This document shows, in pieces, positions 5,973 to 37,494 of a stretch of DNA of 64,000 nt; within the stretch, counting starts at the first letter, position 1, and each line of letters starts with the position of its first letter. The stretch is from IMG/VR virus record IMGVR_UViG_3300020576_004755, positions 118,850 through 182,849 of that record, one strand, 5' to 3'. Position numbers and translations under genes: made by a program. Source of the stretch: a virus. Its lineage: Duplodnaviria; Caudoviricetes. The notes beneath the pieces were generated by a model. It made no database searches. It was not told the DNA's origin and was given only the letters and a program-made list of their open reading frames with translations.

Positions 5973-6350
5973 TTAGTGCGGAACCTCTTTAACTACTGGA
6001 CAAAAGTGACTCTCTGAGTCTGCTAGCTCGTTTAGAAAGACTTTGACAAAGGCTCGGACAGGCATGGGAAGTGAGGTTGTTGTGACTGCTGGAGCAAAAT
6101 GATAAGATACAGTGTTCTGAAAAGTCCAGTAATGGTTGATCCAACCTGAACCCTCTTCTCCCTTATAGAGAAAGTTGCACGGTCCCGTGATTGCCTTGTC
6201 GGAGATTTCAATAAATCGTTTGGTTTTTGGATTTGTCATATTATTTCGAGAAATAGAACCAAGGAAGCCGATAAAAGATGCAGAGTTAATCTTGAAAAAG
6301 ATTAATGGCATTGGTCCAAGAGTCTCTGTGTTTGTTCTACGGATTGTCAT
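5973..6350 (-). CDS. MTIR-tag family protein
   Basis: MTIRRT. Confidence 0.7.
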   Translation of the reverse strand: MTIRRTNTETLGPMPLIFFKINSASFIGFLGSISRNNMTNPKTKRFIEISDKAITGPCNFLYKGEEGSGWINHYWTFQNTVSYHFAPAVTTTSLPMPVRAFVKVFLNELADSESHFCPVVKEVPH

Positions 6351-7401
6351 CTTTTTCTTTCTTCAAAAGCTGTGCAATCAACCCATCCCACATTAGCCGA
6401 AACTTGATATAGTTTGGAGGAGACTCAATATACTTGTAAATCTTCTCGTTCACAAAGAGTTCAATCAACCACTCTTGCTTCTCTGTGAACGGATCGGACT
6501 TTCCAAGATACCGCTTTATCTGGCTCTTAAACCAAAAGAGAAAGGTTTCCTTCTCGACGCAGTAAAGCTCAATTCCACGAATGAACCGACTGATCTCGTC
6601 TGAGAAGAAGATTTTCTCCTTTTTCTTCTTTTGGTATTTCGTTGCCATGATGTTGTTTTTAGTCGTGCGAGGTATAGGATCCGAGAGAAAAGCTGCAATA
6701 CTCACGGGTCCACTCAAGCGTCTCAGGATCGTACTCTCCGTCAACATAGACGGTGATCTGTGGGCTGGTGTAATATCCACCCGTAGAAATCTCTTCAAGG
6801 TGGATCTCTGCCTTGTACTTCTTAAGAAGCTCCTGTAGATCCTTTCGGAACTCTGCTTCGACTTCCTGCTTGGTAATCATTATGGTCATGGTTCAATCAT
6901 CATCAGTGTGCGTCAGGATAGATAAGGTAACAGTTGGTATCCAGTAAAAGTGCTTCTGCGTGAACTCGACGATTTCCACAAGAACATCGCGGTTCGCCTA
7001 CAATCCAAGTCTCGCATTCGCAAATGTTGCTGTCAATCCTTACTTCTTCGTCTGATTCAGACCAAACCTCAAGCCAAAATGCAATTGCATCTTCTGCCGA
7101 ATCGGCAATTACTTCTGCGGAAGAAATCGATTCGTTTCGAAAACTAGCTTTCATTTTTCTACTTCTCCTTGTTTCTTAGAAGAGAGCCGCAAATCGCGTT
7201 TAGCTTCTGCAAATGCTCAATTTCTTGTAACAATGCATCTACATTGGTGACGTTCGCGTCGTCTTTGAAATTTGCACACGCTTTCATCCAAGCAAGTGCA
7301 GCCTCATAATCATTTGGATTCTCATCCAAATTCTTGCGGGTGATTTTTACTTGATCAACCGCTGCACGGCATTGATCGATAATTGGTTTGGTGATTGTCA
7401 A
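6337..7401 (-). other. four small hypothetical genes (6337-6648, 6659-6889, 6903-7154, 7159-7401)
   Basis: abutting ORFs; 6903-7154 has CECETW..RCSCGNRRV Cys motif. Confidence 0.55.
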
Positions 7402-7690
7402 ATTCTATATCACGCAAGGTAGAGTCAACAGATTTAATTGTGTCATAGACTTGCCGACGAATAGTCTTTGGAAGGTATGGGACTTCGTGATAGGTTAGTT
7501 CTTTAAATCTTCCAAGGCATGACAGGCTGGCTGTTGAATAATCTGCTGGAAGTTGAAAGCTGCACTGTCGAACATAACCAAGGTAATACCAATCGCCATA
7601 AGAATCAAAATCATGTATAAAGATGGCTACGTAGATGTTGTCCACAGTCTCTTGAACATAATCATGACGGTGTAGTGCTCTTATGGTCAT
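7355..7690 (-). CDS. MTIR-tag family protein
   Basis: MTIRAL. Confidence 0.7.
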   Translation of the reverse strand: MTIRALHRHDYVQETVDNIYVAIFIHDFDSYGDWYYLGYVRQCSFQLPADYSTASLSCLGRFKELTYHEVPYLPKTIRRQVYDTIKSVDSTLRDIEFDNHQTNYRSMPCSG

Positions 7691-7908
7691 TACAATTCAC
7701 CCCTCCAAATCTTCTTGATTGCATTATATTGCATTGGCAATGCTCTCATTGGACCAACCATGTAATTCATGGTGAAGTTCATCATGTAATATTTAGGTAG
7801 GGGATGACGAGAGGATTCATGGACAGGGATAACATCTTCTTTGTCCTGAAGAAGAGTATAGATTTCAAAGCCTTCAACAACATGCGAATATGTTTTTCTG
7901 ATTGTCAT
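7690..7908 (-). CDS. MTIR-tag family protein
   Basis: MTIRKT; ATGA overlap. Confidence 0.7.
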   Translation of the reverse strand: MTIRKTYSHVVEGFEIYTLLQDKEDVIPVHESSRHPLPKYYMMNFTMNYMVGPMRALPMQYNAIKKIWRGEL

Positions 7909-8153
7909 TTCCAATCTCCCAAATCTTTCACCAAGATCAACTTATGTTCATTGCGAATCTCTTCGCAAAACTTATGGGCACTTTTCCTAATTGCTGTTGT
8001 GAAAACTGTGCCTTGCCATGGATAACAGATTTGATAAGTGTAAGCATAGCAGGCAAGACCAAAAGGTACATTCTTGTCGTTGTCAGCTACCAACAAATAG
8101 TTCAAGCTACCAAAATGAGGATATGGTTTCTCTGGTCTTCTTCGAATTGTCAT
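7905..8153 (-). CDS. MTIR-tag family protein
   Basis: MTIRRR; ATGA overlap. Confidence 0.7.
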   Translation of the reverse strand: MTIRRRPEKPYPHFGSLNYLLVADNDKNVPFGLACYAYTYQICYPWQGTVFTTAIRKSAHKFCEEIRNEHKLILVKDLGDWK

Positions 8154-8461
8154 ACGTACAATGGTCCATTTCCTTCTTTTTGCTCAAGATAGCCATATTC
8201 AAGGCAAAGGGTTTGAAGCCAAAGAAACTCTTTTGAGGACGCTAGTGGTTTAATTCCTGCGTCTGAATATAGAAACTTTTCAGAAAAGCAATTTTCACCA
8301 GCGATGATTCTTCTAGCCCATGCGTTGAACCATATAAGCTTTCTAAGATCCTCGCCGAGATATGTGATAATCACAGCAGGATACCAATCCGTAGAAGCAC
8401 GAAGAGGATTTGTTCTGATCTGATACTCGAAAGTATTCTTATGTGAGATTCTAATAGCCAA
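8150..8461 (-). CDS. MTIR-tag family protein (TTG start, MAIR)
   Basis: TTG GCT ATT AGA; 11-nt overlap. Confidence 0.65.
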   Translation of the reverse strand: MAIRISHKNTFEYQIRTNPLRASTDWYPAVIITYLGEDLRKLIWFNAWARRIIAGENCFSEKFLYSDAGIKPLASSKEFLWLQTLCLEYGYLEQKEGNGPLYV

Positions 8462-8705
8462 AGCTACAACCACTTTCCTGCATCATGCGTTGAAACTCCA
8501 TATGGTGTTTAACGTTACCATTATAGAACATAAACGTCCAGTCTGATTTCCTGACTTTGCCGTCTGTGCCTATAAATGTTCGGTTTTGAAGTATGTATCC
8601 ATGCCGGTCCAGTCTATTATTACGCTTTTTGTTGCCCCATGTGAGCATGATGAAACAATCCGTCTTTTTCAAGAGCTTTGTACTGTGTCTTGCTCGGATT
8701 GTCAT
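8451..8705 (-). CDS. MTIR-tag family protein
   Basis: MTIRAR. Confidence 0.7.
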   Translation of the reverse strand: MTIRARHSTKLLKKTDCFIMLTWGNKKRNNRLDRHGYILQNRTFIGTDGKVRKSDWTFMFYNGNVKHHMEFQRMMQESGCSFGY

Positions 8706-8708
8706 TAC

Positions 8709-8984
8709 TCAGAATCCTCTGATTGTTGTAGACCTACGTTCTGCTGCTGGCATCTGTGCTAGGATTCCCCACGCATAAGAAAGAACCAATGGATGAGACT
8801 TTCTTGTTGCCTTGGTGGCAAGGTAGATTTTGCCTTGCGATTCTTGTGTCACAACATCAAGAGTCATGAAATGATAATGTGGTCTAAGGTTCAAATGAAA
8901 GGCACGGAACAGATTCTTACTTTTTCTGTTCTGCATGAGCTTCAATGTCTTCTTGTCGAAGTTGAGTGTTTGTCTGATTGTCAT
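8709..8984 (-). CDS. MTIR-tag family protein
   Basis: MTIRQT. Confidence 0.7.
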   Translation of the reverse strand: MTIRQTLNFDKKTLKLMQNRKSKNLFRAFHLNLRPHYHFMTLDVVTQESQGKIYLATKATRKSHPLVLSYAWGILAQMPAAERRSTTIRGF

Positions 8985-8987
8985 TTT

Positions 8988-9191
8988 TTATAGGAGTCCT
9001 CTTGAAACAAGTTCAGCAATCTGCACGTAACGGATGTAAAGACGGGTATGAGCTACAGCACGACCAGAGAATGTCATTGGTATCTCTTTCTGGCAGCATG
9101 ATAGACTGTAAAGCATAGTGTCAGGGGAAATCATCAAGTAAACAGTCTGTTTTCTTTTGAGCTTATCTGTGTGGGTTGTTCTAATGGTCAT
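8988..9191 (-). CDS. MTIR-tag family protein
   Basis: internal start MTIRTT. Confidence 0.65.
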   Translation of the reverse strand: MTIRTTHTDKLKRKQTVYLMISPDTMLYSLSCCQKEIPMTFSGRAVAHTRLYIRYVQIAELVSRGLL

Positions 9192-9193
9192 TT

Positions 9194-9448
9194 TTATAGC
9201 AGTCCATCGAAAGCTTTGTGCCAGTTTGGAATATCGGTTTGATATAGAAAGAGTCTTTTGAGAAATCCAGAGTAAGAGTTTACCTGAGAAAGAGTTGCTA
9301 GTTTGAATCCAACAGGAGTACGAGGACGCGACCATGCTGTTGGTGACACAGTGCTCTTGTGAAGAGTTACAATCTTGGCTCTTATGTTCTCAACTCCATG
9401 AGTCTTTAGTGAAAGAATATTTGTTGTGCAGGTTGATCTGATTGTCAT
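9194..9448 (-). CDS. MTIR-tag family protein
   Basis: internal start MTIRST; ATGA overlap. Confidence 0.65.
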   Translation of the reverse strand: MTIRSTCTTNILSLKTHGVENIRAKIVTLHKSTVSPTAWSRPRTPVGFKLATLSQVNSYSGFLKRLFLYQTDIPNWHKAFDGLL

Positions 9449-9699
9449 GGCATTGGTAGTCCAAAGTGAGTTCTCCATTGCAAGGATTCTTCGTAACTTA
9501 CGTTGCAACCCCAGGTAAACAGGGGTCGAGTGGGTCGAGGGTGATTACTTAGCCTTCTAGCAGAATAAGAATAAATCATCCCCGTCCAGTGCCGTTTCGG
9601 ATCGTCGTTTAACGATACAATCTTCGCAAGATACCTACCATTGTAGCAGTCTGTTGGCAGGTTTGTAAACTTTGTTACGTGTATTGTCCTGATCGTCAT
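9445..9699 (-). CDS. MTIR-tag family protein
   Basis: MTIRTI. Confidence 0.7.
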   Translation of the reverse strand: MTIRTIHVTKFTNLPTDCYNGRYLAKIVSLNDDPKRHWTGMIYSYSARRLSNHPRPTRPLFTWGCNVSYEESLQWRTHFGLPMP

Positions 9700-9706
9700 T
9701 TGTTTA

Positions 9707-10393: not shown

Positions 10394-10394
10394 T

Positions 10395-11364: not shown

Positions 11365-11374
11365 AGTGTTTTTA

Positions 11375-11620: not shown

Positions 11621-11858
11621 GTGACTTGACCAGTTCTTTGAACTCTGTCATTGCACAAGCACTCACAAAGTATTTATCTGCGCGGACGAAACGTTCCTCA
11701 CGAATAGAAAGTTTGTGAATGCAGTTGAGAACGAGTTTGTTGCACAGAGACTTTACCTCTATGTTGTGATAGACATAGGTGTCAAAACGATATACTTTGC
11801 CTAGCTTTTCCGCAAAGCTTATCAAGCCATTCTGCACGTTTGTTGTTCTAATTGTCAT
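11610..11858 (-). CDS. MTIR-tag family protein
   Basis: MTIRTT; ATGA overlap. Confidence 0.7.
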   Translation of the reverse strand: MTIRTTNVQNGLISFAEKLGKVYRFDTYVYHNIEVKSLCNKLVLNCIHKLSIREERFVRADKYFVSACAMTEFKELVKSHDN

Positions 11859-12499
11859 TGTACCAATAGTCCATTCTTCTTCAAGAAGTCATAGAACTTA
11901 CCAAACCGCTGCGCATCAAGCTTGTTGATCTTTTGCACTTGATTTAGCTTGGTTTGGTAAGCATCCCAATCAATGTCGTCCTTGGTCCAGTTAAGCTCAG
12001 AACCCTTATTCATATCCTTTCTAAAATCACCAATGACCACGGTTGAGTAGAACCCTCCGGTGCCCTTCATCTTGTTATAGATTTGATTTAGCAATTGGTT
12101 GAAGAGCTTGTCTGCAAGTACCTCGTTCGGAGTATCGTTATTGCGAGTTGCTCCAACGACTGTATTCTCTGCCGAAGTGTAATCTGTCATCTGTTGACGA
12201 CACTTCAAATCAATCTCTGCCTTCTTGTGCCATTCGTTTTCATTGATCTGGAAAGATAGCTCTCCGGTCCTGAACGGCTTGTAGAAGTTAAGAATAACCT
12301 CAAGACCTGCCCAATCAAGATAAGGCAAGTCTTCTGTCTTGGTCGTGAAGAACGTATCGTGCCATACTTGATCGCACTCAAGCATTACGTGCTTAAGGCG
12401 AAGCAGAACACGACTGTTCACAAAATCATTCATTCCATCGTACTGAATGAACGCTGATGCTGATGATGCCTGCTGTTGCTTCTGTTGCTGCTTGCTCAT
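11855..12499 (-). CDS. hypothetical protein
   Basis: start MSKQQQ gives ATGA overlap with 12496..12828. Confidence 0.7.
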   Translation of the reverse strand: MSKQQQKQQQASSASAFIQYDGMNDFVNSRVLLRLKHVMLECDQVWHDTFFTTKTEDLPYLDWAGLEVILNFYKPFRTGELSFQINENEWHKKAEIDLKCRQQMTDYTSAENTVVGATRNNDTPNEVLADKLFNQLLNQIYNKMKGTGGFYSTVVIGDFRKDMNKGSELNWTKDDIDWDAYQTKLNQVQKINKLDAQRFGKFYDFLKKNGLLVQ

Positions 12500-12828
12500 C
12501 CTGCAATCTTCTTCCACGAGTTCATAAACGAAACAATATTCATCGCACCAGCGGGATTGCTGGAATGAACCTGATAAGCTGGACACTTTGGAAACTCGTC
12601 TTGCTCATAGAACCACTCCTCAAGCTGACGAAGAAAAACCATGGTTGTGTCGTCACCACCGAGATCATGGTCGAAGCTGAAAAACTCAGGAAGACCATAG
12701 AACTTGACGTAGTGAATCGCATCTGCACTGTTTCTGCAAATGACCCATTGTCCAGGCACGTCCCTCTTTGGAAGATGCTTAACGTCGTCAAGACCGCGAA
12801 GGTCGTCGAGAAAAAGGAAATATGCCAT
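12496..12828 (-). CDS. cyclic-phosphate-processing receiver-like domain protein
   Basis: LFLDDLR, SFDHDLG, VHSSNPAG motifs; promoter 12852-12881. Confidence 0.75.
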   Translation of the reverse strand: MAYFLFLDDLRGLDDVKHLPKRDVPGQWVICRNSADAIHYVKFYGLPEFFSFDHDLGGDDTTMVFLRQLEEWFYEQDEFPKCPAYQVHSSNPAGAMNIVSFMNSWKKIAG

Positions 12829-12892: not shown

Positions 12893-13618
12893 TTATTTCT
12901 TCGAAGTCTTTTTAGGCTTTTTTGGTGTCGATACCAATTCTGGTTCTGGTTGCTTGTTCACAACGCGCTTTGGAAGCTCTGTTGGCATAACGAACTCAAC
13001 GTTCATGTTAACGCTGATGTTGAACTTTGGTGTTCCAATCACGTTGGCAACATTGTGCTTAACGCACTCATTCGCGTCCAAGAACCAGTCTGCATGACGA
13101 CGTGAGGTAATCTCTTTGCCAAAGTATTCCTTGGTATGACCGCAATTGGCTGCCATGATCTCAAGAATCTTGTCGTTCAAGCGATCTGCTTCCTTGGCAG
13201 ATGCCTTGATCTCTTCATTCTTACCAAAGGCAACGGACGATACTTCATGAATCATAACGGTTGCGTTTGGACCAACGAAGCGATAGCCCTCGTGTCCACA
13301 AGTGAAGAGTGCTGCTCCGCATGACATTGCCTTGCCTTCAACAATCGTAGCAACCTTCAAAGAGGGATCGATTGAGTTGATAGCGTCAATGCAAGCCATG
13401 AGAGAATAGACTTCTCCACCGTATGAGTCGATGATGATTGGAAGAACCTTCTGCTGCGATTCAAGGGCATGATTCTCTGATTGAATCAAGTCTTGACGGA
13501 ACTTCATGCAGTTGTCTTCTGAGAACTCGCCTGTGAAGCGAACGTAAATTGGAAACTTTGAGTGCTTCTCTGGTTCGATTAGTGTAATTCTTGGATCTAC
13601 ATTAACGATATACTTCAT
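12893..13618 (-). CDS. clpP: ClpP-family (S14) protease
   Basis: IDSYGGEV, GKAMSCGA (catalytic Ser), VMIHEVS (His), DWFLDANEC; promoter 13691-13720. Confidence 0.9.
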   Translation of the reverse strand: MKYIVNVDPRITLIEPEKHSKFPIYVRFTGEFSEDNCMKFRQDLIQSENHALESQQKVLPIIIDSYGGEVYSLMACIDAINSIDPSLKVATIVEGKAMSCGAALFTCGHEGYRFVGPNATVMIHEVSSVAFGKNEEIKASAKEADRLNDKILEIMAANCGHTKEYFGKEITSRRHADWFLDANECVKHNVANVIGTPKFNISVNMNVEFVMPTELPKRVVNKQPEPELVSTPKKPKKTSKK

Positions 13619-13743
13619 ATGATAATCTCGTTTCTTTAAGTCTTGTTGTTTTTTGTTTTTTGATGTTAGCAAGTGCAACAACAAGAATAGAATCTAACAT
13701 TGAGACTCATATGTGTAAATGACTATGAATAATGTGGCAAAGT

Positions 13744-14049
13744 TCACTTAAACTTTGTTATCGTATCGCACATTTGTTCGTAGTCCTTTTGCATATCTTT
13801 GTCAAAGGCATTGAATGTCTTTGGATAGAGATAGTGAAGGAAATACCTGTAGGTTTCATCTGCCATGGTAACAGAGTACAGCGACGGATTGATCATTGTG
13901 TTTTCCGATAACACACGAACAGCAAATGGAAGAGTAATCACAAGTCCATCAATCCTCAAAATGATAAAGCTTCCAACATGACTAGAGCGTCCTAGTCCTT
14001 GGAAAAGCAAAATCTTCTTTCTTGTCTTGCTGTTATATCTTATTGCCAT
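13744..14049 (-). CDS. MTIR-tag family protein
   Basis: MAIRYN. Confidence 0.7.
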   Translation of the reverse strand: MAIRYNSKTRKKILLFQGLGRSSHVGSFIILRIDGLVITLPFAVRVLSENTMINPSLYSVTMADETYRYFLHYLYPKTFNAFDKDMQKDYEQMCDTITKFK

Positions 14050-14368
14050 AGTGTTGAAGTGTGTAAAGGTTCTTTAGCTCTTTGTGAATCTGCTTCATTT
14101 CAAGGTTCTTTAACACTTTGAAGTGACTTGCGTGGTTTATGTATTTTAGTTCAAGAAGAGGATCCTTGAAGACTGCGTATCTCTTATCCATCAAGACTTG
14201 ACGACCTTTTACTTTCCAGTAAGGAAACATATGGTTAATCATATCGCCAACAGAGATTTCCTCGCCATTGATGTAAAGCTCGTAATACATATCCCTTGAT
14301 TTGACGTTGTAGGACGAAACAAGATGAAATACGTTCACCTTCGTTACCGTGATCCTTCGGATTGTCAT
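14033..14368 (-). CDS. MTIR-tag family protein
   Basis: MTIRRI; ATGA overlap. Confidence 0.7.
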   Translation of the reverse strand: MTIRRITVTKVNVFHLVSSYNVKSRDMYYELYINGEEISVGDMINHMFPYWKVKGRQVLMDKRYAVFKDPLLELKYINHASHFKVLKNLEMKQIHKELKNLYTLQHYGNKI

Positions 14369-14787: not shown

Positions 14788-15246
14788 TCAGGCTTCTTCG
14801 TCTTCCTCGGGGCGTTCGGGAACGAATGGATCGCAGTAGCTTGCGTAGGACATACCAGCTTCAATATGCTCTTCAAAGAATGGAAGATTTGAAAGACTTG
14901 ATTGATGAACGCAGAACTTCAACTCCTCGTCATAGGGCAATGAATGACGGAACGTGATTGTTTTCAAGTCCTTGAAGTCACGGAATCCATTTGACTGAGA
15001 CTCGTTGAAAGGCTTGCCATAGAGCGAATACCAATACTCGTACTCAATCTCTCCCTCTTCAAAGGTAATATCTCGTACCTTGGTGGTTGGATCGCCTGGA
15101 TCTGTTTCATACTCAGAGACAGAGAAGAGACTGAAATAGCGAATATGTAGAGCAATGTCATCTTCAAAGAGATTGCCGTAACGACGCTCTTTGTTCATAT
15201 CGACGCAGCGATCTACGGGAAGCATGGAAGTTTTTCGAATGGTCAT
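14788..15246 (-). CDS. MTIR-tag family protein (acidic)
   Basis: MTIRKT. Confidence 0.75.
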   Translation of the reverse strand: MTIRKTSMLPVDRCVDMNKERRYGNLFEDDIALHIRYFSLFSVSEYETDPGDPTTKVRDITFEEGEIEYEYWYSLYGKPFNESQSNGFRDFKDLKTITFRHSLPYDEELKFCVHQSSLSNLPFFEEHIEAGMSYASYCDPFVPERPEEDEEA

Positions 15247-15883: not shown

Positions 15884-16597
15884 TCAGTTTTCGTTCTTGA
15901 TGCTTTCAATAAGATACGCCTTGAGAGTATCCAAGTCACCGGAATCAAGAAACCTTTGAAGCTTGTCTTCGTCAACGTACTGATTTGCAGTTGCAAGATC
16001 TCTCCAACCTCTATCAGCACGTCCACTGTTGAACCGAAGACCTACGTTTGAAAGGTCAAAGTTCTTTGGATCGTTGTCCTTTGAATAAGCATAGATAAGA
16101 CCGGAATAGATAGAAATTCCAACAAACTCAGGTGCTTTGTATTCAATCTTCACTTCACCGGAAGCAATCTTCTCCATAACGAACGCAGGGATTTTGAAGA
16201 ATAGCTCAGGATCATCTTCGTCTTGTTGAACTACAGGCTGTCCAAGAATTGCAGACTGCACAGGAGCAGAGTTCACAGAAGGCGCAGGAAGCACCACAGA
16301 AGCGTTTGGAAACTTGGCAAGGTATCTTGCGTGTGCATTCTTCATTGCCTGCCTAGAATGCCACTCTGAGATGCAGGAATAGGTATCCACAATGCTATCG
16401 TCGTCTGGTCGATTGACTCGGATGACAAGCGAGATGATTGTGTTATCATCGCCACGAGCAGTAGTCTTCTCGTTGTACTTCTCCATACGAACAAGTTGGA
16501 ACTCGATTTCTGGTCCGTTCCTTCCGGTATCCATAACAAGACGGCTCAAATATGAGCTATCTGCGGATACTTTCTTGTAGTGAGTTTGAATGGTCAT
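15884..16597 (-). CDS. MTIR-tag family protein (MTIQ variant)
   Basis: MTIQTH; ATGA overlap. Confidence 0.75.
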   Translation of the reverse strand: MTIQTHYKKVSADSSYLSRLVMDTGRNGPEIEFQLVRMEKYNEKTTARGDDNTIISLVIRVNRPDDDSIVDTYSCISEWHSRQAMKNAHARYLAKFPNASVVLPAPSVNSAPVQSAILGQPVVQQDEDDPELFFKIPAFVMEKIASGEVKIEYKAPEFVGISIYSGLIYAYSKDNDPKNFDLSNVGLRFNSGRADRGWRDLATANQYVDEDKLQRFLDSGDLDTLKAYLIESIKNEN

Positions 16598-17037: not shown

Positions 17038-17622
17038 TTATTTGGCATAATTCTCTAGTTCAAAAATGTCATTTCTGATGAAATTCTGATAAGTGTCGTT
17101 CTGTTTTTTGAATTGCTCGGCAAGCATAGCGTACTTCTTTGATCCCTTTCTTACGCCTCTGAATACCTCTTTTGATGAGTACATGTATGGTGAAACGATG
17201 ATTGGATTCTCTGGATCTACTTGCCTTGAACTATAAGTCCAATTTACAAAAATAGTGAAGCGCATCGAAGACTTTGAAAGATAGATTGGAGTATGAGTGA
17301 TAGGTACATATTCACCAATCGCAATCTTATATAGCATATCCTTTGAAATTGCTACCTTCTTTTTCTTCACAGAGCCCTTGTTGACTCGGTTGAGATAGAC
17401 TCCTGCGCTGCTGCCAGGGTTCATTTGCCAAAACACAGTATTTTCCTTGTTGACGATCGGATGGACCATACTTACCCAACCACCTGATCTCGCTTTGATG
17501 AACTCTTGAACGAAGGATGAATTTTTTAACCCAATCCCACCTTTCCAGTAAGCATGGAAATTCATGTGCAGATGGAAATTGTTCCTTGCAATTTCATTTG
17601 AATGTGAAAGTCGGATAGTCAT
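17038..17622 (-). CDS. MTIR-tag family protein
   Basis: MTIRLS. Confidence 0.75.
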   Translation of the reverse strand: MTIRLSHSNEIARNNFHLHMNFHAYWKGGIGLKNSSFVQEFIKARSGGWVSMVHPIVNKENTVFWQMNPGSSAGVYLNRVNKGSVKKKKVAISKDMLYKIAIGEYVPITHTPIYLSKSSMRFTIFVNWTYSSRQVDPENPIIVSPYMYSSKEVFRGVRKGSKKYAMLAEQFKKQNDTYQNFIRNDIFELENYAK

Positions 17623-20094: not shown

Positions 20095-20946
20095 TTACTT
20101 GTTGCTATGCCTGAAAGCATAATCACGGTCTAGCATATCACCAATTTCACGCTTCATTGCTGTTATTGCCTTGTAAACGTCATATGGCATATCTGGATTT
20201 TGATTATATGACTTTTGAATTGACTTTTTCTCCGGTGAGAACAAGGAGTTGCCATCGAAGTTGCATTCATATACTTTCCATCCACAGAAGAATTCTGAAT
20301 CAACGTTCTTTGATAGTCTAACTTCATCTTCTTCTGTGATTACGTCAGGAATTAGAAGACCTAACCTTGCATCTTCTATTCTCTTGCTGAGACTGAACTT
20401 GTCAGAGACGTTTTCGATGTATAGGCTGAGTTCACTTTTTGTTGTTGATGATGATGCAGATGTTTTGGCACTAGGATTGATAGCTTGAAACAGAGTGAAC
20501 TCTAGCAAACCTTCTCTCACTCTGATCAAGTTATCCCACGAATCATAGATGAATGTATTCATAACAGGAATATATGGAGCCCAGACATATCCAGAAGTTA
20601 ACATGTTGCTGGTACCTGTGCCTGTGTATTGCAACGACGTTGTGGCACTACTTGCTGTTATCGAAAGTGGGGTGTTTGCGTTGATAGTGATTGATGCTGT
20701 GCCTGTTCTAGTTGCTGGAAGGGTGATTGTGTTCGTAGTGACGCTACTTGTAGTGACGCTATTTGGATTTACCGTTGACCACCAAGGATTAGACGCAGAC
20801 ATATTTGTTGGCATCGGTGTTGTTACAACGCTTTGTACTTTTCCAATGTTGTCAACTCGTTTATCTATTACAACATGCCAAAAAGCTCTCTGACCGTTTA
20901 ACAGTCCTCCATGAAGTCCTTTTGCTATAGATTTCCTTATTCCCAT
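20095..20946 (-). CDS. MTIR-tag family protein (MGIR) with Ser/Thr-rich linker and capsid-like peptide
   Basis: MGIRKS; LTSGYVWAPYIPV. Confidence 0.75.
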   Translation of the reverse strand: MGIRKSIAKGLHGGLLNGQRAFWHVVIDKRVDNIGKVQSVVTTPMPTNMSASNPWWSTVNPNSVTTSSVTTNTITLPATRTGTASITINANTPLSITASSATTSLQYTGTGTSNMLTSGYVWAPYIPVMNTFIYDSWDNLIRVREGLLEFTLFQAINPSAKTSASSSTTKSELSLYIENVSDKFSLSKRIEDARLGLLIPDVITEEDEVRLSKNVDSEFFCGWKVYECNFDGNSLFSPEKKSIQKSYNQNPDMPYDVYKAITAMKREIGDMLDRDYAFRHSNK

Positions 20947-20975: not shown

Positions 20976-22079
20976 TCAGTTATTGTGAGTATCAGTGTAC
21001 GGGAATGCCTTTAGCTCGTATTGAATGGAATTGCTAAATGGAGAACTTGTCTCTGTGCGACATACAACAATGTAGTGTTCGCTGCCGTCTACTTGTTCAT
21101 TTACTGTACGAACTTCTGAATAAGACTCAATGGAAGCGGAACGTGATCCGGTCTGAGACTTGCAGAAGTTTGTAATTCTCTGTTCTTTATGAACTGCATC
21201 GCGAGCCATTTGATTATTGCATGAGCTGATTCCAGAAACAGCAAATCCAATCAAAATACCTATGAGTGCAATCGGAGTCTCGACAATAAGAAACTCTAGT
21301 AGTTCTAGTGTTGCGCTGTATATTTTCTTCAATAGTTCTAGCATGGTTTTTGTTTTCTTCATTCTCAATTATTGTTGTTGCTATTATTGTTAGTTGAGGT
21401 GATTGTGCAGTTTTCGTTTATGAACTCGATGACGTTGTGGCTTCGGTCAATGATGTAGAAGTAATTGCCACGACGCTCGCTGTAGCCAACATAATACGCT
21501 TGATAGCGTCGAACTGACTCTGGACTGCTCATGCATACAGTGTCGTGTCCTTCGCTGTCAAAGTTCATTTGAACCATACGGTGATCGCATGATACGGTGA
21601 TTACATGATTTATTTCTCTGTTATGCTGCCAGGTGTCTTCAACGTTTTTTGCTTCGTAGCGAATAATTCCAACTACGATCAAAAGAATTGCCAAAAAAGT
21701 GCCGAAGATAATGAAAAAGGCAAGCCAGCCAGCTTTTAGCTCATATTCTGTTCCTGTTGAATACCGATATGAATCATAGAAAATGTTTGTTAGCTTTTTC
21801 TTGAATGCTTTGTACTTATCGTTGAGTTTGTCTTTGAATGTTGTCATTTTTTGGTTATTCTTTGTGATAGATTATTGATATCTTGGATTGAAACTCTGGA
21901 AGGGTGTTTGTTGGTTTGCAGGACTCGTTGACATTCAGCTCCAACTTGATATTCTCACGAACACAGATAGCATCAAGTGCTCTCAATGCTTCAATGTCAA
22001 GCTTTCTTTCTTCTGTCAGAAGAAATCTGTTGAATTCCTGTTCTGTTGGAGAAGAAAGAAGCATATGTTTACTTGCCAT
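20976..22079 (-). other. three hypothetical genes, two single-TM (20976-21368, 21365-21847, 21855-22079)
   Basis: abutting ORFs with hydrophobic segments. Confidence 0.6.
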
Positions 22080-22554
22080 TGTTCTTTTCTTTCTCTAGCT
22101 GTTGCCTAATTGCAAATAATTGCTTGGTTAGTGGTCCTTCGTTGTTTGTTGGATCAAACTTCTCAATGCTTCGCTTTCCAAAGCGTTTGTCAAGCATTAG
22201 AAATGCTTTGGTGATATCTCGCCTATCCATTTGCAAAATATCTGCTGGTTTGTTATTTATCCAATGCATCATGCCAACCAAAGCAGAATGAGTATTGTAA
22301 ATGCCATTGTCCCAAGCTTTAGCATTTCTCTCTTCTTTCGAAAGAGTTGGTTCTAGCAATCTAAGCTCATAGACGTATCTATCGAACTTGTTAGAGTTTG
22401 CTTTGAAGATGGTCTTGCCATCAAAATGAATACGAAACTCTGATTCAGAAGAATCATGAGACTTTCTATACTTGGTTAAATGAACCGTGACTATGCCTTT
22501 GACAGATTCGGCAAAGTTTGACTCAACAAGCTTTTTTGTTTTGCTCCAAGTCAT
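22069..22554 (-). CDS. SF0329-like conserved hypothetical protein
   Basis: WSKTKK..E...YRKSHD and LDKRFGKR motifs recalled for this family. Confidence 0.55.
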   Translation of the reverse strand: MTWSKTKKLVESNFAESVKGIVTVHLTKYRKSHDSSESEFRIHFDGKTIFKANSNKFDRYVYELRLLEPTLSKEERNAKAWDNGIYNTHSALVGMMHWINNKPADILQMDRRDITKAFLMLDKRFGKRSIEKFDPTNNEGPLTKQLFAIRQQLEKEKNNGK

Positions 22555-23014
22555 AGCGACTCCAATTTCTCTATTTCTTCATCTGTTAAATCAATGTAAA
22601 ATGTTACCGTTGTTTCGGTTCCACCGAACTCATCGCCAATGGCTCTACCAATCGTTTTCAGAAGCCTCTTACATTCTTTTCTTGCTCTCTCAATAGAAGA
22701 GCCATTCATGTTTGAGACGCCTTTGAATGTGATTCCATCTGGATTAGCGAAGTATTCCATTATCAACCTCAAATATTTGGAAGCAGTCAACTAAAGGAAA
22801 ATAGACAACTTGTCCGACTGAGCAATGATCTAAGTTGCCAACATTTGCTAGAGTGATTGTTAGTACTCCGTTGTTTGTTTCTCGTAGAATCCCTGGATGT
22901 TGACTCCAAAAGTCCACAGCAACTACAGTGCCTTGAATGTCACCATAATGACTATAAGTCGAGGCATCTTTCTTGGCTTTCAGTTTGTCGCCTACTTTTG
23001 GAATGTTCATTTGA

Positions 23015-23218
23015 TCAGCCTCTTGTGATCTTAAAGATGTTTCCTGACGCATCGACATTTAGATTGATTCTGTCAGGACGATAGTCCATTGTGCAAATAA
23101 TGTGTTGACCTTCAACAAAGGTTACTCGACACATGACACCGTGCTCTTTGCAATAAGCTCTGGCATCTGCTTCTGTCATTCCAATGAGTTCTTGTGGATC
23201 GAATTTGTCAATGTTCAT
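23015..23218 (-). CDS. peptidase inhibitor I78 / potato-inhibitor-I-like protein
   Basis: LIGM...CTMDYRPDRINLNVD..G.I..G. Confidence 0.65.
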   Translation of the reverse strand: MNIDKFDPQELIGMTEADARAYCKEHGVMCRVTFVEGQHIICTMDYRPDRINLNVDASGNIFKITRG

Positions 23219-24337: not shown

Positions 24338-24835
24338 CTATTCCCAAACTTTGTCTCTGGTAGAAAGAAACTCATGGTGCTCTTCAATAAAGTCATCAAA
24401 GAAATTCAAGAGCCTTGGACCAAGATGCTTCTTATGATGCCTGCCAATTCTACTTCCTGTTATCATTTCAAGTCGAATCGTTGAATCATTAAGCTGCATT
24501 GTCCAGTCCTCAATTTGTTCATCGGTAAGTTCATCCAATGGACTGTCAGAACCTCCTCGGATAAAAGACTTCGTGACTCTCTTGTAAGAGTCTTTGTGTG
24601 CAGAGTATTGGTACTCAATTGTCCCAATGGAATAATTCATTGTTGTTGTCTTCACATCAACAAAGAGATCTATGGGATTCATGGCATATCCATGATGGAT
24701 TGAAGCGTCAAGTTCGTAATAGTAGTAAGGCACAAAGTTAGGATCTGCCTTGGCTAACGCAGTTTCTTCTTCCAAAGATCTTGGAAGCCTGCTTAGCTTC
24801 TTGATATCGAGGTATTTGTTGACTCTGATTGTCAC
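24338..24835 (-). CDS. MTIR-tag family protein (GTG start)
   Basis: GTG ACA ATC AGA; GTGA overlap. Confidence 0.7.
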   Translation of the reverse strand: MTIRVNKYLDIKKLSRLPRSLEEETALAKADPNFVPYYYYELDASIHHGYAMNPIDLFVDVKTTTMNYSIGTIEYQYSAHKDSYKRVTKSFIRGGSDSPLDELTDEQIEDWTMQLNDSTIRLEMITGSRIGRHHKKHLGPRLLNFFDDFIEEHHEFLSTRDKVWE

Positions 24836-25896: not shown

Positions 25897-26307
25897 TCAT
25901 ACTGGCATATTCTGTGTATCAATGTCAACTTCTTCCATCATTTTCATAACGGCATCAACAGCAAATCTTCTCTTGTGCTTGTTTGCATAGATGAGCAAGA
26001 GTGCTTCTGTTGTTTCTCTGTAGTCGGCAGCAAAGCTATAAGATGGTCCATGGTTATTGATACCCTTTGTCCAAAGGTCTTCCATGAAGAAACGCCGAGG
26101 ATCATCTGTTGCTTCCATTATGAATCCTGTTACCACGTCAATATAGGCATTTGGAGGCATACGTCGCATTACACGAAACTCATGACCAACTCTTTTGGTC
26201 GGGATATTCCAACGAAATAATGCGCGAGCACGAAACGTAGTGCTGCCATACAAGAAGACGTTATGACGAGCGTCGGATATCTTGTACTTGAAAGTCGTTC
26301 TCATCAT
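25897..26307 (-). CDS. MTIR-array protein, degenerate tag (MMRTTF)
   Basis: ATGA overlap; RTTFK as in other members. Confidence 0.7.
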   Translation of the reverse strand: MMRTTFKYKISDARHNVFLYGSTTFRARALFRWNIPTKRVGHEFRVMRRMPPNAYIDVVTGFIMEATDDPRRFFMEDLWTKGINNHGPSYSFAADYRETTEALLLIYANKHKRRFAVDAVMKMMEEVDIDTQNMPV

Positions 26308-27556: not shown

Positions 27557-27850
27557 TTATCGCTTTGGATTGAACAATCCGACGAAAGGATAGTCTGTGT
27601 TTGGATAGAAAATATGTTGGTTTCTGCTGGCAACAGACTTCTTGAACGAATCAACCTGATTGCGCTGACGCTCTCGCATATTATGATATGCTGCAAGCTT
27701 ACTATAGCCGATCGAAAATCTCACGGAATTGAAGTCGTCCCAATAGAACCTTTTCTCTCTCCCTGCTTGTTGGCGAAGAGTTAGTGAACAAAGGAATATG
27801 TTCACAATAGAAGAGTGTAATTTGGTTATGCTTTCTGTTCTGATTGTCAT
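27557..27850 (-). CDS. MTIR-tag family protein
   Basis: MTIRTE. Confidence 0.7.
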   Translation of the reverse strand: MTIRTESITKLHSSIVNIFLCSLTLRQQAGREKRFYWDDFNSVRFSIGYSKLAAYHNMRERQRNQVDSFKKSVASRNQHIFYPNTDYPFVGLFNPKR

Positions 27851-30981: not shown

Positions 30982-30991
30982 AATGACTTTT

Positions 30992-32761: not shown

Positions 32762-32769
32762 GAAAGGGT

Positions 32770-33755: not shown

Positions 33756-34011
33756 ACTTACCTGCCTCTACCTCATGCCATTTCTTTATTTTTTCTTCAT
33801 CTATTTCGATCCGTTGAGCAAGTCTTTTCTTGTGGCTAAAGTAGAACCTTTCGTCGAAGACTTCTGGATATCCCTTGAACAGTAAGTCTTGATGCATAAA
33901 GCGTTCGTCAGAAATCATGGAACCGCCAATCGTCGCTCGGTAGAGAAATGCTTCTTTTGTTACAATACGAACTCTGTTGTTTGGACTCTTGAATGTAATT
34001 CGAATGGACAT
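33745..34011 (-). CDS. MTIR-tag family protein (MSIR)
   Basis: internal start MSIRIT. Confidence 0.7.
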   Translation of the reverse strand: MSIRITFKSPNNRVRIVTKEAFLYRATIGGSMISDERFMHQDLLFKGYPEVFDERFYFSHKKRLAQRIEIDEEKIKKWHEVEAGKYGN

Positions 34012-34015
34012 ACTC

Positions 34016-34273
34016 TTACTTCCTTCTGCCATTCTCTATGTCATGCCAGATATCTTCAAAAGCACGATAGTCTTCACTAGCACAATTTGCATAGAATGAT
34101 CCAGCTTTTCTAAAGAACCATCCAGTCTTCATTGGATAGTCGCTATTCATATACAAGAAATTATAGTGAATTGCATCTGGTTTATTTGGATTCATTGCCA
34201 GAGTGCGAAACTTCACTTGTGAAAGAATACGAACTCGCGTTTCTGTGTGCTTATATGAAGTTCGAATTGTCAT
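34016..34273 (-). CDS. MTIR-tag family protein
   Basis: MTIRTS. Confidence 0.7.
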   Translation of the reverse strand: MTIRTSYKHTETRVRILSQVKFRTLAMNPNKPDAIHYNFLYMNSDYPMKTGWFFRKAGSFYANCASEDYRAFEDIWHDIENGRRK

Positions 34274-34278
34274 GTGCT

Positions 34279-34620
34279 TTATTTTTCGTTTTTTCTGTCT
34301 CTCAGCAAGGGATATCCAATCTTCCGACAGATTTCGTAGTAGACAGGCAATATCTCTATCATGGCTTTTTCCGGTACGTTGTCAAACATGGCACTAAACG
34401 TTTCGATTGGATACCATTCAATCTTCGACAAGCCATTGTCATTTATCCACTGTGATATCCGTGAGCTGCATGTAAACAGAGTGCAAAATCTTCGTGTTTT
34501 ATGAACAGAAAGATGAAACACTTTGCTCTGAACATCATAGAACGCAAACTGGTTGATCTGCTTTAGAGCTACTTGAAGTCTTGGAAGCTGCTCTTCCGAA
34601 TATTGGCTTCTAATGGTCAT
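34279..34620 (-). CDS. MTIR-tag family protein
   Basis: MTIRSQ; 11-nt overlap. Confidence 0.7.
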   Translation of the reverse strand: MTIRSQYSEEQLPRLQVALKQINQFAFYDVQSKVFHLSVHKTRRFCTLFTCSSRISQWINDNGLSKIEWYPIETFSAMFDNVPEKAMIEILPVYYEICRKIGYPLLRDRKNEK

Positions 34621-35002
34621 TGTATTCTCGCAAGATTTCTTCTATGAATTGATGAGCCTTGCGAGTCGAGTCGTTTTTTGGATCTTTCTTCCAAGGGATT
34701 GTTACATACTGCTTGGTCCAAACGTTGAACTTGCTTATATCATCCCAATTGCGAGATTTACCATTAACTTGATAGTAGACCGTAACTTTTCCTTCTTGGA
34801 ATTTTGAAACAGGAAACTCTAAAGGATGCTCACAGTTTGGTATAACCACCCCTAAAGTAAAGTAATAGGACGTTCGTTCGCTACTTCTCATGCTCAGTAG
34901 ACTACTACAGGCTCTTTGAGTAAAGATATAAACCCTCGTCTTCTTTTGTTTCCAAAAGAGATTAGAAAGGGGTTTTGATAATGTTGTGGCTCTGATGGTC
35001 AT
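34610..35002 (-). CDS. MTIR-tag family protein
   Basis: MTIRAT; ATGA overlap. Confidence 0.7.
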   Translation of the reverse strand: MTIRATTLSKPLSNLFWKQKKTRVYIFTQRACSSLLSMRSSERTSYYFTLGVVIPNCEHPLEFPVSKFQEGKVTVYYQVNGKSRNWDDISKFNVWTKQYVTIPWKKDPKNDSTRKAHQFIEEILREYNDH

Positions 35003-35331
35003 CGCACTAAAATTGCAACCTTCCTGTGATTCTTATGGAACCATCCCTGCTTGTTTGGCGGAAAAGACTTTGCATATGAATAGGAGATGTTGTTAATCTC
35101 TCTGGCAAGATGGGATTGGCAAGTGTCTCCAAGCCAACAAAAACTTGGCTTCATTTCATGAAATCTCATATAAATGCTAACGTTGTCGCTACGAAGAAGA
35201 TTGGTCATTATCAGAACTCCTGGATTATGCTCTGGTTCACGGAACATGGCAACATAGATCCATTCGTAATCTCCTGCTACTCCTACCCTGTGATATCTCG
35301 CTTTTATCTCTATTGTGGCTCGTATGGTCAT
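34999..35331 (-). CDS. MTIR-tag family protein
   Basis: MTIRAT; ATGA overlap. Confidence 0.7.
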   Translation of the reverse strand: MTIRATIEIKARYHRVGVAGDYEWIYVAMFREPEHNPGVLIMTNLLRSDNVSIYMRFHEMKPSFCWLGDTCQSHLAREINNISYSYAKSFPPNKQGWFHKNHRKVAILVR

Positions 35332-35669
35332 GAAATTAAAGAGCCTTCCATGATAGAAGCAAGTGCTCTGAACTGCCCTGGTCCATACAAGGTATATATG
35401 TCAGACATATGCGTACCTTGCATGTAGGCATTCCAGGGACATTCGTAATCTCCTACATCTCTTGTAAGTTGGTTGATTATGGCAGGATTTCTTGCTGCCG
35501 GTGTAGTTGCCAAAGTACCATTGATGATCTTCAAGGCTGCGTCAGAGAAGAAATAAGCATGAAAGACGTACAGCACAGGATTGACAAAAGCAAAGGAAGG
35601 AGAAGAAGAAGAAGAAGAAGGCAGATGACTTCTTGAATACTTTCTTGTTAGTGAAGCTCGAATGGTCAT
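35328..35669 (-). CDS. MTIR-tag family protein
   Basis: MTIRAS; ATGA overlap. Confidence 0.7.
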   Translation of the reverse strand: MTIRASLTRKYSRSHLPSSSSSSPSFAFVNPVLYVFHAYFFSDAALKIINGTLATTPAARNPAIINQLTRDVGDYECPWNAYMQGTHMSDIYTLYGPGQFRALASIMEGSLIS

Positions 35670-35989
35670 AGGTGTCTTTTTCTCATCGTGTTGCTTTCTT
35701 TGTCATTTCTTGGATAGGGAATGTCATACACAATGTTGTCGTAGATTTCTCTAAGCCGACAACTTGGATTATGAACAAGAAATCTGTAAGAAAAAGTGCC
35801 GTCATCATCATCATCATCATCATCTACCTCGTCAATAATGCGAAGCAAATAACCTTTTGCGTTGCTATGAGAAACGATCTTGAACTTGTAGGTATTACGA
35901 TATCCAGAGCTCTCGATCAAGGAGGCAGGAAGCTCTATCGATCCATAGCAAGAGTTTACGTTTCTTAGGTCTGTTGTTCGAATGGTCAT
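35666..35989 (-). CDS. MTIR-tag family protein with poly-D
   Basis: internal start MTIRTT. Confidence 0.7.
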   Translation of the reverse strand: MTIRTTDLRNVNSCYGSIELPASLIESSGYRNTYKFKIVSHSNAKGYLLRIIDEVDDDDDDDDGTFSYRFLVHNPSCRLREIYDNIVYDIPYPRNDKESNTMRKRHL

Positions 35990-35997
35990 AAAATAGT

Positions 35998-36534
35998 CTA
36001 ACTTCCCTTCTCTCTTTCTCCTCTTCCGATTGAATCCCATATGTCTCGTTCTTCTGACATGTTCTGATTGCTGCGTTTGAAGTTCACAGAGAACAGAGTT
36101 TTGTTATTTGTTGTTCCGTTATCGGAAGAAATGCTTGTGGTACGAGAGATTGTTGCCGTGATTCTTCCTACTTCATAACTGCCAACACCGAACGGACTGT
36201 TAAAATCTTTCTCAATAGCTCTGTAATAATTCAAGTCCTCAAGGGTGTAAGTGCGGACCTTTCCATCAACAGCTTCTTCATAAGCTATTTTGTCAAGAAT
36301 TCGATCAATGTTTGACTGGATCCTATCTGTCCAGTAAGCATGGGAGTCTGGATCTGGATACTTCTTTACATGAGTGAACGTATTGAGGAGCAATAGTCCC
36401 GATCCATCTATCATTGCTTCTCTTTTTATTCCTTTTCTTTTGCAAATGACATCTCCAAATAAAAGAGAAGAAGAAGAAAGACTTCTTGCAATGATCTCGA
36501 TGTTGATTGTTGGTATGGAGATACGGATGGTCAT
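35998..36534 (-). CDS. MTIR-tag family protein
   Basis: MTIRIS; ATGA overlap. Confidence 0.75.
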   Translation of the reverse strand: MTIRISIPTINIEIIARSLSSSSLLFGDVICKRKGIKREAMIDGSGLLLLNTFTHVKKYPDPDSHAYWTDRIQSNIDRILDKIAYEEAVDGKVRTYTLEDLNYYRAIEKDFNSPFGVGSYEVGRITATISRTTSISSDNGTTNNKTLFSVNFKRSNQNMSEERDIWDSIGRGEREKGS

Positions 36535-36968
36535 TGTTTCTGTTCTTCCTCTTTGTCAAACAGAAGATGAAACTGTTCAGAAGAAGTGGTCTGACAGATT
36601 GACGATGAATCAAAGCCTTTGTCAACGCTCAGGAACTTCAATACAGGCTTGTATCCTGAATAGAATGCGCCATCGCGACACAATACAAGTTGCCTTGTTG
36701 TATAGGTTCCCATTCCGGTAGGAGAACGTTCAATGGCATCAATGACACGTTGGTTTTGCATGATAGATTTTTCGTAAAACAGTCTGTCTTTTTTATGCTT
36801 TGCTGTGTACATAAGCCTGTTTAGATTGTCATTCTGTTGTTTCAAGTTCTTTGCCATTGCAGCTTGGTCAAAGTTCATTACATGCTTGGTAACGATCTTG
36901 ATCCCTTTGTCTCTAAGGAAGAGGAGGGAGGAGAATGATAGATCTTTTTGTTGTCTACGGATGGTCAT
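36531..36968 (-). CDS. MTIR-tag family protein
   Basis: MTIRRQ. Confidence 0.75.
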   Translation of the reverse strand: MTIRRQQKDLSFSSLLFLRDKGIKIVTKHVMNFDQAAMAKNLKQQNDNLNRLMYTAKHKKDRLFYEKSIMQNQRVIDAIERSPTGMGTYTTRQLVLCRDGAFYSGYKPVLKFLSVDKGFDSSSICQTTSSEQFHLLFDKEEEQKQ

Positions 36969-36988
36969 ATAGAATGGAATATAACCCC

Positions 36989-37018
36989 ATTATAGGTTAT
37001 TGTGCGCCGACAATAAAC
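36989..37018 (-). promoter_or_regulatory. early-type promoter near the head of the largest MTIR block
   Basis: GTTTAT-N18-TATAAT. Confidence 0.75.
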
Positions 37019-37092
37019 AAAAGAAGGGATTTTCTCAAATGTGCTCTTGAAAGCAAGAGCAATTGCCGCTAAAAATAGGAAGATTGTTGTTA

Positions 37093-37494
37093 TTATCTAT
37101 TGCCGACACTAAAACTGCCAAGAGGAAGATCTAGCAGATGAGGACAGTGATCTAAGATAGCTTGCCTGGTAATGGCATGAAGCTTTCTATTGATCTCGTC
37201 ACATTCATCATTCCATTTTTTGTTAAAAGTGGCATATACATGCTCTTGAGAAGAAGAACAGTTAAGCCGAAAGAGAGTTCCTTTAACGGTATCCATGGAA
37301 TACTCTGATGAGCTATTAGAGGAAGAAGAAGAACTAGCATCATGAGAATGGAAGTTCAGTCTAACGTATGTATAAGGAAACCCAAAGGCTCTTGAATGGT
37401 TGGCTTGGATAGCTTGTTTGTATTGCCAGAGAAAGCTATCCGATAGCTTTACTGTTTCTAATAAGACTGTTGTTCTTGTTCTTCTGATTGTCAT
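37093..37494 (-). CDS. MTIR-tag family protein (first of array)
   Basis: MTIRRT. Confidence 0.75.
   Translation of the reverse strand: MTIRRTRTTVLLETVKLSDSFLWQYKQAIQANHSRAFGFPYTYVRLNFHSHDASSSSSSNSSSEYSMDTVKGTLFRLNCSSSQEHVYATFNKKWNDECDEINRKLHAITRQAILDHCPHLLDLPLGSFSVGNR

Follow-up and report, generated by a model that had tools for sequence, protein, structure and literature searches.

A four-residue N-terminal tag on about 75 small predicted proteins of an uncultured freshwater phage and its possible role as a peptide address

A tract of tagged genes on the minus strand

We analysed a stretch of 64,000 nucleotides (hereafter the window) that forms the final 64 kb of a 182,849-bp IMG/VR virus contig (IMGVR_UViG_3300020576_004755, positions 118,850 to 182,849) and carries a tract of small open reading frames (ORFs) sharing a four-residue N-terminal tag. 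The tag was defined as M-[T/A/S/P/G]-[I/V/M]-R at the start of an ORF, and ORFs of at least 50 amino acids (aa) were counted. By this definition, 69 tightly packed tagged ORFs of 67-283 aa lie on the minus strand of window positions 5973-37494. The tract as a whole (genome positions 114621-156343) extends ~4 kb beyond the left edge of the window, where five further tagged ORFs were found, and holds 75 of them in about 41 kb; only two such starts occur elsewhere in the 183-kb contig. The nucleotide pattern ATGACNATHMG is present 54 times in the window compared with 0.75 +/- 0.96 times in shuffled sequences, and 51 of the 54 copies are on the minus strand of the tract. The first, promoter-proximal tagged gene (37093-37494, minus strand; MTIRRTRT) adjoins a divergent intergenic region at 37495-37866. 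The last one in the interval covered by the initial annotation (5973-6350, minus strand; MTIRRTNT) has 66% identity to its orthologue in another lineage, L234, which is introduced below.

Among the 75 tags, residue 2 is Thr in 55, Ala in 11, Ser in five, Pro in three and Gly in one, residue 3 is Ile in 71 with two Met and two Val, and residue 4 is Arg without exception (75/75). The Thr codons are ACC (28), ACA (24), ACG (2) and ACT (1), the Ile codons ATT (38), ATC (23) and ATA (10), and the Arg codons AGA (32), CGA (25), CGT (10), CGC (5), AGG (2) and CGG (1). The examples quoted in the initial annotation were correct (ATG-ACA-ATC-CGT at 6350, ATG-ACC-ATA-AGA at 7690, ATG-ACG-ATC-AGG at 9699 and ATG-ACT-ATC-CGA at 17622), and the non-ATG starts that it mentioned were located as GTG at 24835 and 25462 and TTG at 8461. 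The tagged starts are real. Recorded gene calls place identical starts in eight of the ten proteins looked up, and Shine-Dalgarno (SD)-like pairing 5' of the tagged starts is -4.0 kcal/mol, against -3.8 for long untagged genes and -1.8 at random positions (p=3e-10). The tagged start regions also have less structure than random positions. At 22-23 junctions the genes overlap via ATGA, and at 11 others they overlap by 11 nt via a TAG within ATT-AGA. Four starts, MTIL, MTIM, MTIT and MTIQ (5692-5907, 6659-6889, 7159-7401 and 15884-16597, all minus strand), keep M-T-I and not the Arg; the MTIL start is conserved as MTIL in L234 and is therefore not a recent decay product.

When the first eight residues were stripped, 71 of the 75 tagged proteins were singletons in BLASTP, and the weak matches between bodies showed no excess over reversed or shuffled controls. 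None of the 69 tagged proteins in the window matched Pfam or PHROGs; recognisable domains within the tract (ClpP, a cREC receiver domain, SF0329 and a protease-inhibitor-like peptide) are confined to untagged genes. Judged by sequence comparison, the tagged proteins are not a paralogous family, and their bodies are unrelated to one another. Their mean length is 116 aa, they are mostly soluble (a transmembrane-like segment in 3/75) and 83% are net positive. Aromatic residues and His are unusually common in them (Y 5.7%, F 5.4%, W 1.9%, H 3.5%). Beyond the tag, residues 5-9 are weakly biased as well, towards T/R, T/S, aromatic and K. The best-conserved tagged family is represented here by the gene at 14791-15246 (minus strand). 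Its structural model has a predicted local distance difference test (pLDDT) score of 65, with residues 1-7 as a low-confidence coil (pLDDT <50), and a structural search with it was uninformative (best Z 5.3). In the model, this coil is compatible with a free tag. The longest tagged protein, a 283-aa MGIR protein (20098-20946, minus strand), has a Ser/Thr-rich stretch at which contigs from two sequencing runs diverge, with loose ends at 20299-20338; the stretch is probably a hypervariable or repeat-length-variable linker.

Recurrence of the tag in other lineages

The tag recurs in four other metagenomic lineages, giving five when this phage is counted. Metagenome contigs from JGI/ENA were scanned for two strict tags 243-273 nt apart. 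Most of the 85 matches were WD40-type repeats or satellites, and the scan recovered a second lineage (L156/L194, GC 0.32), from which exact-protein look-ups led to the 20-kb loci L223 and L224. Three more lineages (L234, L237 and L239) were reached through homologues of the best-conserved tagged family and of an untagged 214-aa protein encoded within the tract. The contigs L235 and L236 are identical to L234 and add no strain comparison. Independent gene calls start with M-x-I-R in 26 of 51 genes in L224 and 20 of 34 in L234, with a shortened M-I-R in four and two, and with M-x-I plus a non-Arg fourth residue in six and two. In L239, the slot of the tag array (2584-6264, plus strand) is occupied by ~14 small paralogues of 81-110 aa with MKKQ or MKNP starts and 4-nt overlaps.

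No enrichment of MTIR was found in Microcystis phage Mel-JY01, in nine long relatives from IMG/VR whose capsid identity is 55-71% (two were examined in full) or in 21 ClpP neighbourhoods of related viral contigs, and no other N-terminal tetrapeptide was over-represented in these same sets. A two-tag pattern scan of viral contigs gave chance or repeat-protein matches only, and an amidoligase query found no relatives among viral contigs.

Selection at the peptide level

The initial annotation proposed that the tag is selected as a peptide and is not a fixed DNA site. Information content at the first and second codon positions is 1.3-2.25 bits (0.68 at the first base of codon 2), whereas the three wobble positions carry 0.37, 0.42 and 0.60 bits. 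The codon-position entropy check suggested with that proposal thus gave a period of three, and equal conservation of third positions, the outcome named as contradicting it, was not seen. We also assembled a set from all lineages in which a start codon was followed by a small residue and Ile and codon 4 was left unconstrained (n=166). Codon 4 encodes Arg in 134 of these, and its forms are AGR in 78, AGY in none, CGR in 34 and CGY in 22 (Fisher 2.4e-10). A pyrimidine in the third base appears only together with C in the first base, as the genetic code demands for Arg, indicating that Arg is selected and not the bases. Codon choice in the tag tracks GC content: the 32% GC lineage favours ACA/ATT/AGA, and this 41% GC genome has more ACC/ATC/CGA. 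The period of three, the contrast between AGY and CGY and the retention of I-R in orthologues described below strongly support the proposal that the amino acids M-(small)-I-R, and not the bases, are under selection.

The wobble positions are nevertheless not neutral. Compared with the expectation from gene bodies, ACC is found 28 times instead of 10, ACT once instead of 12, and CGA 25 times instead of nine. The preference for ATT-AGA arises partly because ATT-AGA supplies the stop of the upstream gene.

Orthologues and the mature N-terminus

Nucleotide homology between this genome and L234 is limited to the ClpP gene (73%), the cREC and 214-aa genes (87%) and the end of the tract (77%). The 214-aa protein is 88% identical between the two, but only seven of the 32 tagged L234 proteins have a homologue among the tagged proteins here (26-66% identity), so evolution or replacement is much quicker among the tagged genes than among the untagged genes beside them. 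Orthologues whose remaining sequence has diverged to 25-57% identity still carry the tag. Among 24 orthologue pairs compared between lineages, all with less than 60% identity, R was retained in 24 and I in 23, and residue 2 either changed among T, S, A and P or was lost. For example, the tagged gene at 14036-14368 (minus strand) starts with MTIR here, with MAIR in L224 and with M-IR in L234 and L237. Members of the best-conserved family, 41-49% identical between lineages, all start with M-[T/S]-I-[R/F].

The M-I-R form is informative. It begins six of 39 independently called genes without M-x-I-R in two other lineages and none of 85 long untagged genes. All 75 tags have a small, uncharged residue at position 2, as expected of substrates for N-terminal Met excision (G, A, S, T, P, V or C), and Met aminopeptidase is known to cleave Met before small residues (PMC3130931). 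Ala and Ile are both one transition from Thr, and the variants at residue 2 include 11 Ala and no Ile (p about 0.001); the Thr share is still 68% where no ATGA overlap needs its A. Met is expected to be retained before Ile, so that MTIR would mature to T-I-R and MIR would stay M-I-R, leaving I-R equidistant from the free end in both. These patterns fit a predicted mature X-I-R terminus after Met excision. The 'MMR' variant (25897-26307, minus strand; MMRTTFKYK) may be read in the same way, as its start at 26307 fits X-[I/M]-R with Met retained. Under a Met-retained peptide motif, a nascent-chain effect or an RNA motif with fixed spacing from the AUG, a shift of one residue would not be tolerated. 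The earlier suggestion that residue 2 is always a Met aminopeptidase substrate therefore fits the data, and it is strengthened by the small-only residue 2, the excess of Ala over Ile and the M-I-R form.

Tags as gene junctions

The tagged cassette at 27560-27850 (minus strand) has a diverged allele in another strain, represented by L133, a 1.5-kb contig from another sample. Its flanks are 92% and 85% identical to ours, and the allele in place of the gene has 39% aa identity. At the nucleotide level, the sequences match through the 12-nt tag (27850-27839), cease to be homologous immediately beyond it and become homologous again at the tag of the next gene (27555). In the second lineage, the homology of three contigs to L224 breaks off precisely where the tag at 17285-17296 ends. 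This is the left breakpoint of the L223/L224 variable block; the right-hand break is not at a tag, and neither is the rearrangement in L227. Altogether, three of five internal homology breaks fall within 2 nt of a tag edge (chance p about 3e-4), a small sample in which a break at a tag is indistinguishable from a break at a gene start, as alignments necessarily run through any tag. The breaks show that whole gene bodies are replaced at gene starts, though not necessarily by crossover inside the tag, and a further role of the 12-nt tag as a junction for swapping gene bodies between genomes is partly shown. Since all cassettes begin with this 12-nt sequence, incoming genes would arrive ready-tagged.

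In a variant strain from one riverine run, 22554 is joined directly to 23015. The deletion of 22555-23014 has gene-boundary precision and removes an MSMR gene flanked by the SF0329 and inhibitor-like genes. Contigs built from the reads of four runs were short, of low depth and mostly identical, and gave no usable breakpoints. Promoter-like and terminator-like sites were at chance level.

Source genome and neighbouring genes

The contig has an estimated CheckV completeness of 48% and a GC content of 41%. The phage, which is uncultured and from freshwater, is a distant T4-like myovirus: among its gene products are the gp20 portal, the gp23 capsid protein (631 aa) and sheath and baseplate proteins, as well as RecA, DnaB, a ligase, a GroEL-type chaperonin, a Ro60/TROVE protein and 24 tRNAs. 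The closest named phage is Mel-JY01 (portal 42% identity), followed by the Flavobacterium 'immuto' phages (36%), and the DNA was present in sequencing runs from riverine, wastewater and freshwater-sediment metagenomes. The tag tract is on the strand opposite to the structural genes, and from this orientation and its position the tagged proteins are probably an early class. The 24 tRNA genes (window 59471-62906 and genome 474-4242) include tRNA-Thr with GGT, TGT and CGT anticodons, two tRNA-Met(CAT) and a tRNA-Ile(GAT), and no tRNA-Arg. They thus cover three of the four tag residues, possibly by coincidence.

Several untagged genes are embedded in the tract. A ClpP-family protease gene (12893-13684, minus strand; Pfam PF00574, E=6e-25), whose true start is probably downstream of the TTG, is conserved in all tag-bearing lineages and is found in tag-less relatives as well. 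A cREC_REC receiver-domain gene (12496-12828, minus strand; PF20274, E=2.5e-18) and the gene for the 214-aa protein, 'p243' (11858-12499, minus strand), are always beside it, and all three are within the tract in all five lineages. The 214-aa protein belongs to no known family. It is extremely rare, with five matches in 5.8 billion proteins and seven representatives in 1.84 billion, and is so far the sole gene restricted, in its close homologues, to tag-bearing lineages. Searches with it gave no Pfam family, no Foldseek match in the PDB and Atlas scores below 0.9; its AlphaFold model is all-helical (pLDDT 66), and a match to a 917-aa eukaryotic cystatin-repeat protein was judged spurious. An SF0329-family gene (22069-22554, minus strand; PF25753, E=1e-23) and a small gene resembling protease inhibitors of the potato inhibitor I / I78 type (23015-23218, minus strand; E about 5e-4, below the curated cut-off) also lie in the tract.

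On the far side of the divergent intergenic region are two Amidoligase_2 genes (37867-40757, plus strand), which are transcribed away from the tract, occur in tag-less relatives too and are directly followed by a GIY-YIG/NUMOD3 homing-endonuclease-like gene (40779-41783, plus strand). At the other end, left of the window (genome 113238-114467, minus strand), genes for peptide deformylase and a YAcAr/SLOG-domain protein form a pair that has a Metallophos gene as its neighbour. The same pairing is found at the tract end in L230 (3423-4468), so that peptide deformylase stands at the tract end in two lineages, and the second lineage then has an R2K-clade ATP-grasp gene. A 475-aa AAA ATPase is weakly proteasome-ATPase-like, but it also occurs in a tag-less relative and was rejected as a candidate.

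Interpretation of the tag

Short N-terminal motifs that are read after Met removal, such as the inhibitor-of-apoptosis (IAP)-binding motif A-V-P-I and the X-P-K methylation motif, combine a small residue exposed by Met excision with two or three defined residues and are bound via the free amino group. The initial annotation modelled the tag with the same logic, suggesting a putative binding pocket for the free terminus, although these systems are eukaryotic and their sequences are unrelated to it. To our knowledge, no such N-terminal reader exists in phages or bacteria except ClpS, which binds bulky hydrophobic N-termini. From the sequence patterns described above, we consider the chances about even that the tag acts as a shared N-terminal signal for handling or degradation, with the free X-I-R end as the part that is read. 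It would be a peptide-level address on a large class of fast-evolving accessory proteins in one clade of T4-like freshwater phages. Deformylation and Met excision would produce the mature X-I-R terminus, with Met itself serving as X in the M-I-R form, and a single common partner would read the flexible free end.

A narrower version, which we favour but put forward tentatively and by analogy, is that the tag is an N-terminal degron and that an AAA+ protease such as host ClpXP threads the tagged proteins from their N-termini, possibly in cooperation with the ClpP, cREC and 214-aa module, so that take-over proteins are cleared or processed together. The lambda-O tag TNTAKILNFGR is a ClpX N-motif-1 degron that is threaded from its Met-excised Thr (PMC12723719). 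The suggested likeness lies in a short, putatively unstructured N-terminus, a small polar residue predicted to be exposed by Met excision and followed by a hydrophobic and a basic one, and possible engagement of the free end by an AAA+ protease; a ClpP gene is present in the tag tract. On the other hand, ClpX motifs vary far more than the tag does, relatives that lack the tag have ClpP as well, and the contig encodes no ClpX or ClpS. We regard as rather unlikely, when its parts are taken jointly, the fuller proposal that the phage has its own N-terminal address code. In that case, Met excision would expose X-Ile-Arg on ~75 unrelated and quickly replaced take-over proteins. A reader dedicated to this class, which could be a host AAA+ protease or the ClpP/cREC/214-aa module, would act on it, most likely to destroy it on cue, and new genes would join by recombining at the 12 nt of the tag.

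A number of observations weigh against a dedicated address with its own reader. The resemblance of T-I-R to the T-A-K of the lambda-O tag is by eye only. Arg at residue 4 is not invariant in the 32% GC lineage, where H, L, Q, K, A or Y is sometimes found instead. In L239, the array has been mostly replaced by the untagged MKKQ/MKNP paralogous family, with four tags left, showing that the tag is not required for residence in the tract. An excess of ACC and a deficit of ACT were seen in all three well-sampled lineages, CGA is in excess here, and codons are linked as ACC-ATT and ACA-ATC (p=0.005); this residual bias and linkage point to some base-level constraint or shared inheritance. No reader was identified among the genes examined, and neither ClpS nor Met aminopeptidase was found in the contig, which is 48% complete. 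ClpP, peptide deformylase, the amidoligases, MoxR and DUF2201 are all present in tag-less relatives, and a distant homologue of the 214-aa protein was found in a 4.7-kb contig without tags. Since these context genes also occur outside the tagged lineages, gene context singles out no partner.

Other explanations account for parts of the data. The tag could be a standard translation start module, in which the first four codons or the nascent M-T-I-R secure initiation or early elongation and no partner is involved. The 23 ATGA overlaps and 11 TAGs within ATT-AGA, through which the tag gives the upstream stop in both other frames, would suit such a module, as would wobble positions that are G-poor and prefer A or C, the low structure of the start regions and the fact that Thr is the sole small residue whose four codons all begin with A. 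We nevertheless find it doubtful, as highly expressed late genes (capsid and sheath) are untagged and SD-like pairing at the tagged genes is ordinary and equal to that of untagged ones, so that the tag is no substitute for a ribosome-binding site. In addition, M-I-R alters codon spacing and the nascent peptide but is tolerated and enriched, I and R are strictly held in orthologues at ~30% identity, which is beyond a ramp effect, and Thr makes up 68% of tags even without overlap use. Less probable still is a relation to RegA-like control, in which a repressor would bind an RNA operator over the start codon (AUGACNAUHMGN) for joint shut-off. RegA targets in T4 overlap the AUG of one gene class, as the motif does here. 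A very low probability is nevertheless assigned to this, because the covariation is shaped by the genetic code (AGY 0, CGY 22) with a period of three and a conservative spectrum at residue 2, and the 3-nt deletion form M-I-R is tolerated; a RegA homologue was not seen, though none was sought.

It is also conceivable that the tag is primarily a DNA recombination linker, whose 12 nt are kept for cassette exchange between co-infecting genomes with the peptide as a by-product. The closest precedent for a junction role, by analogy, is the cassettes bounded by PeSL elements, which are repeated short promoter/stem-loop motifs at gene borders in T4-like variable, hyperplastic regions, where insertions and replacements end (PMC2839356, PMC4122927). 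Both L133 breakpoints and the left L223/L224 breakpoint coincide with tags, so that replacement ends fall on the motif as they do for PeSLs (three of five breaks, a small sample), turnover is far higher among the tagged genes than among the untagged genes embedded with them, and the codon 'haplotype' linkage ACC-ATT / ACA-ATC would also agree with a linker. However, PeSLs are non-coding and intergenic, whereas the tag is codons 1-4, degenerate at synonymous sites and selected as a peptide; most tag junctions overlap by 4 or 11 nt, and promoter and terminator sites are at chance level. A recombination site should conserve every base, but the variation follows the genetic code, exact 12-mers are common to only a minority of tags, two of the five breakpoints are off tags, and a tag break is inseparable from a gene-start break. 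We consider a primary linker function unlikely.

With regard to known phage systems, the closest case is the capsid targeting sequence (CTS) of T4, a common short N-terminal address on diverse, fast-evolving, small internal proteins (PMC3012670). As here, a shared N-terminal leader is carried by otherwise unrelated small proteins of a T4-type phage, and the tagged proteins might likewise be packed in the head via their N-termini and injected as an anti-defence arsenal. The phage is T4-like with gp20 and gp23, and the proteins are small, soluble and mostly basic. The T4 CTS, however, is a leader of about 10 residues on a handful of proteins, and the prohead protease cuts it after Glu, whereas the tag has four residues with no sequence likeness to it and is found on ~75 different proteins in an early-type tract on the strand opposite to the structural genes. 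The defining cleavage site is absent here: residues 5-30 contain 11 (L/I)-x-E sites, a density of 0.006 per residue that shows no enrichment over the 0.009 of the remaining sequence. Capsid targeting is thus very unlikely. Least probable of all is that the tag is a relic of common descent, in which tandem duplication from one ancestor left the N-terminus as the slowest-evolving part. The tandem array and the weak preference at positions 5-9 would fit, but the bodies are no more alike than controls and their lengths range over 67-283 aa. Even if duplication had occurred, four residues outlasting the decay of the rest would still need selection on the tag.

In conclusion, short terminal tags that give many unrelated proteins one fate are already known from the T4 CTS and from degrons. 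A four-residue N-terminal label on 75 ORFs, kept between lineages despite the turnover of the proteins that carry it, is apparently unreported, and our literature search found nothing relevant on MTIR in phages or on shared N-terminal tags on unrelated phage proteins. The tract provides a clean example of how peptide-level and base-level selection can be separated through the structure of the genetic code, and of a coding motif that may have a second use, as a cassette junction, in variable regions of T4-like phages. If a single reader of the X-I-R terminus exists, the tag would represent a new timing or sorting layer in phage infection and could serve as a natural minimal tag for protein control, and it would offer a common handle for pulling down, stabilising or removing, as a class, the ~70 proteins per genome whose function is unknown.

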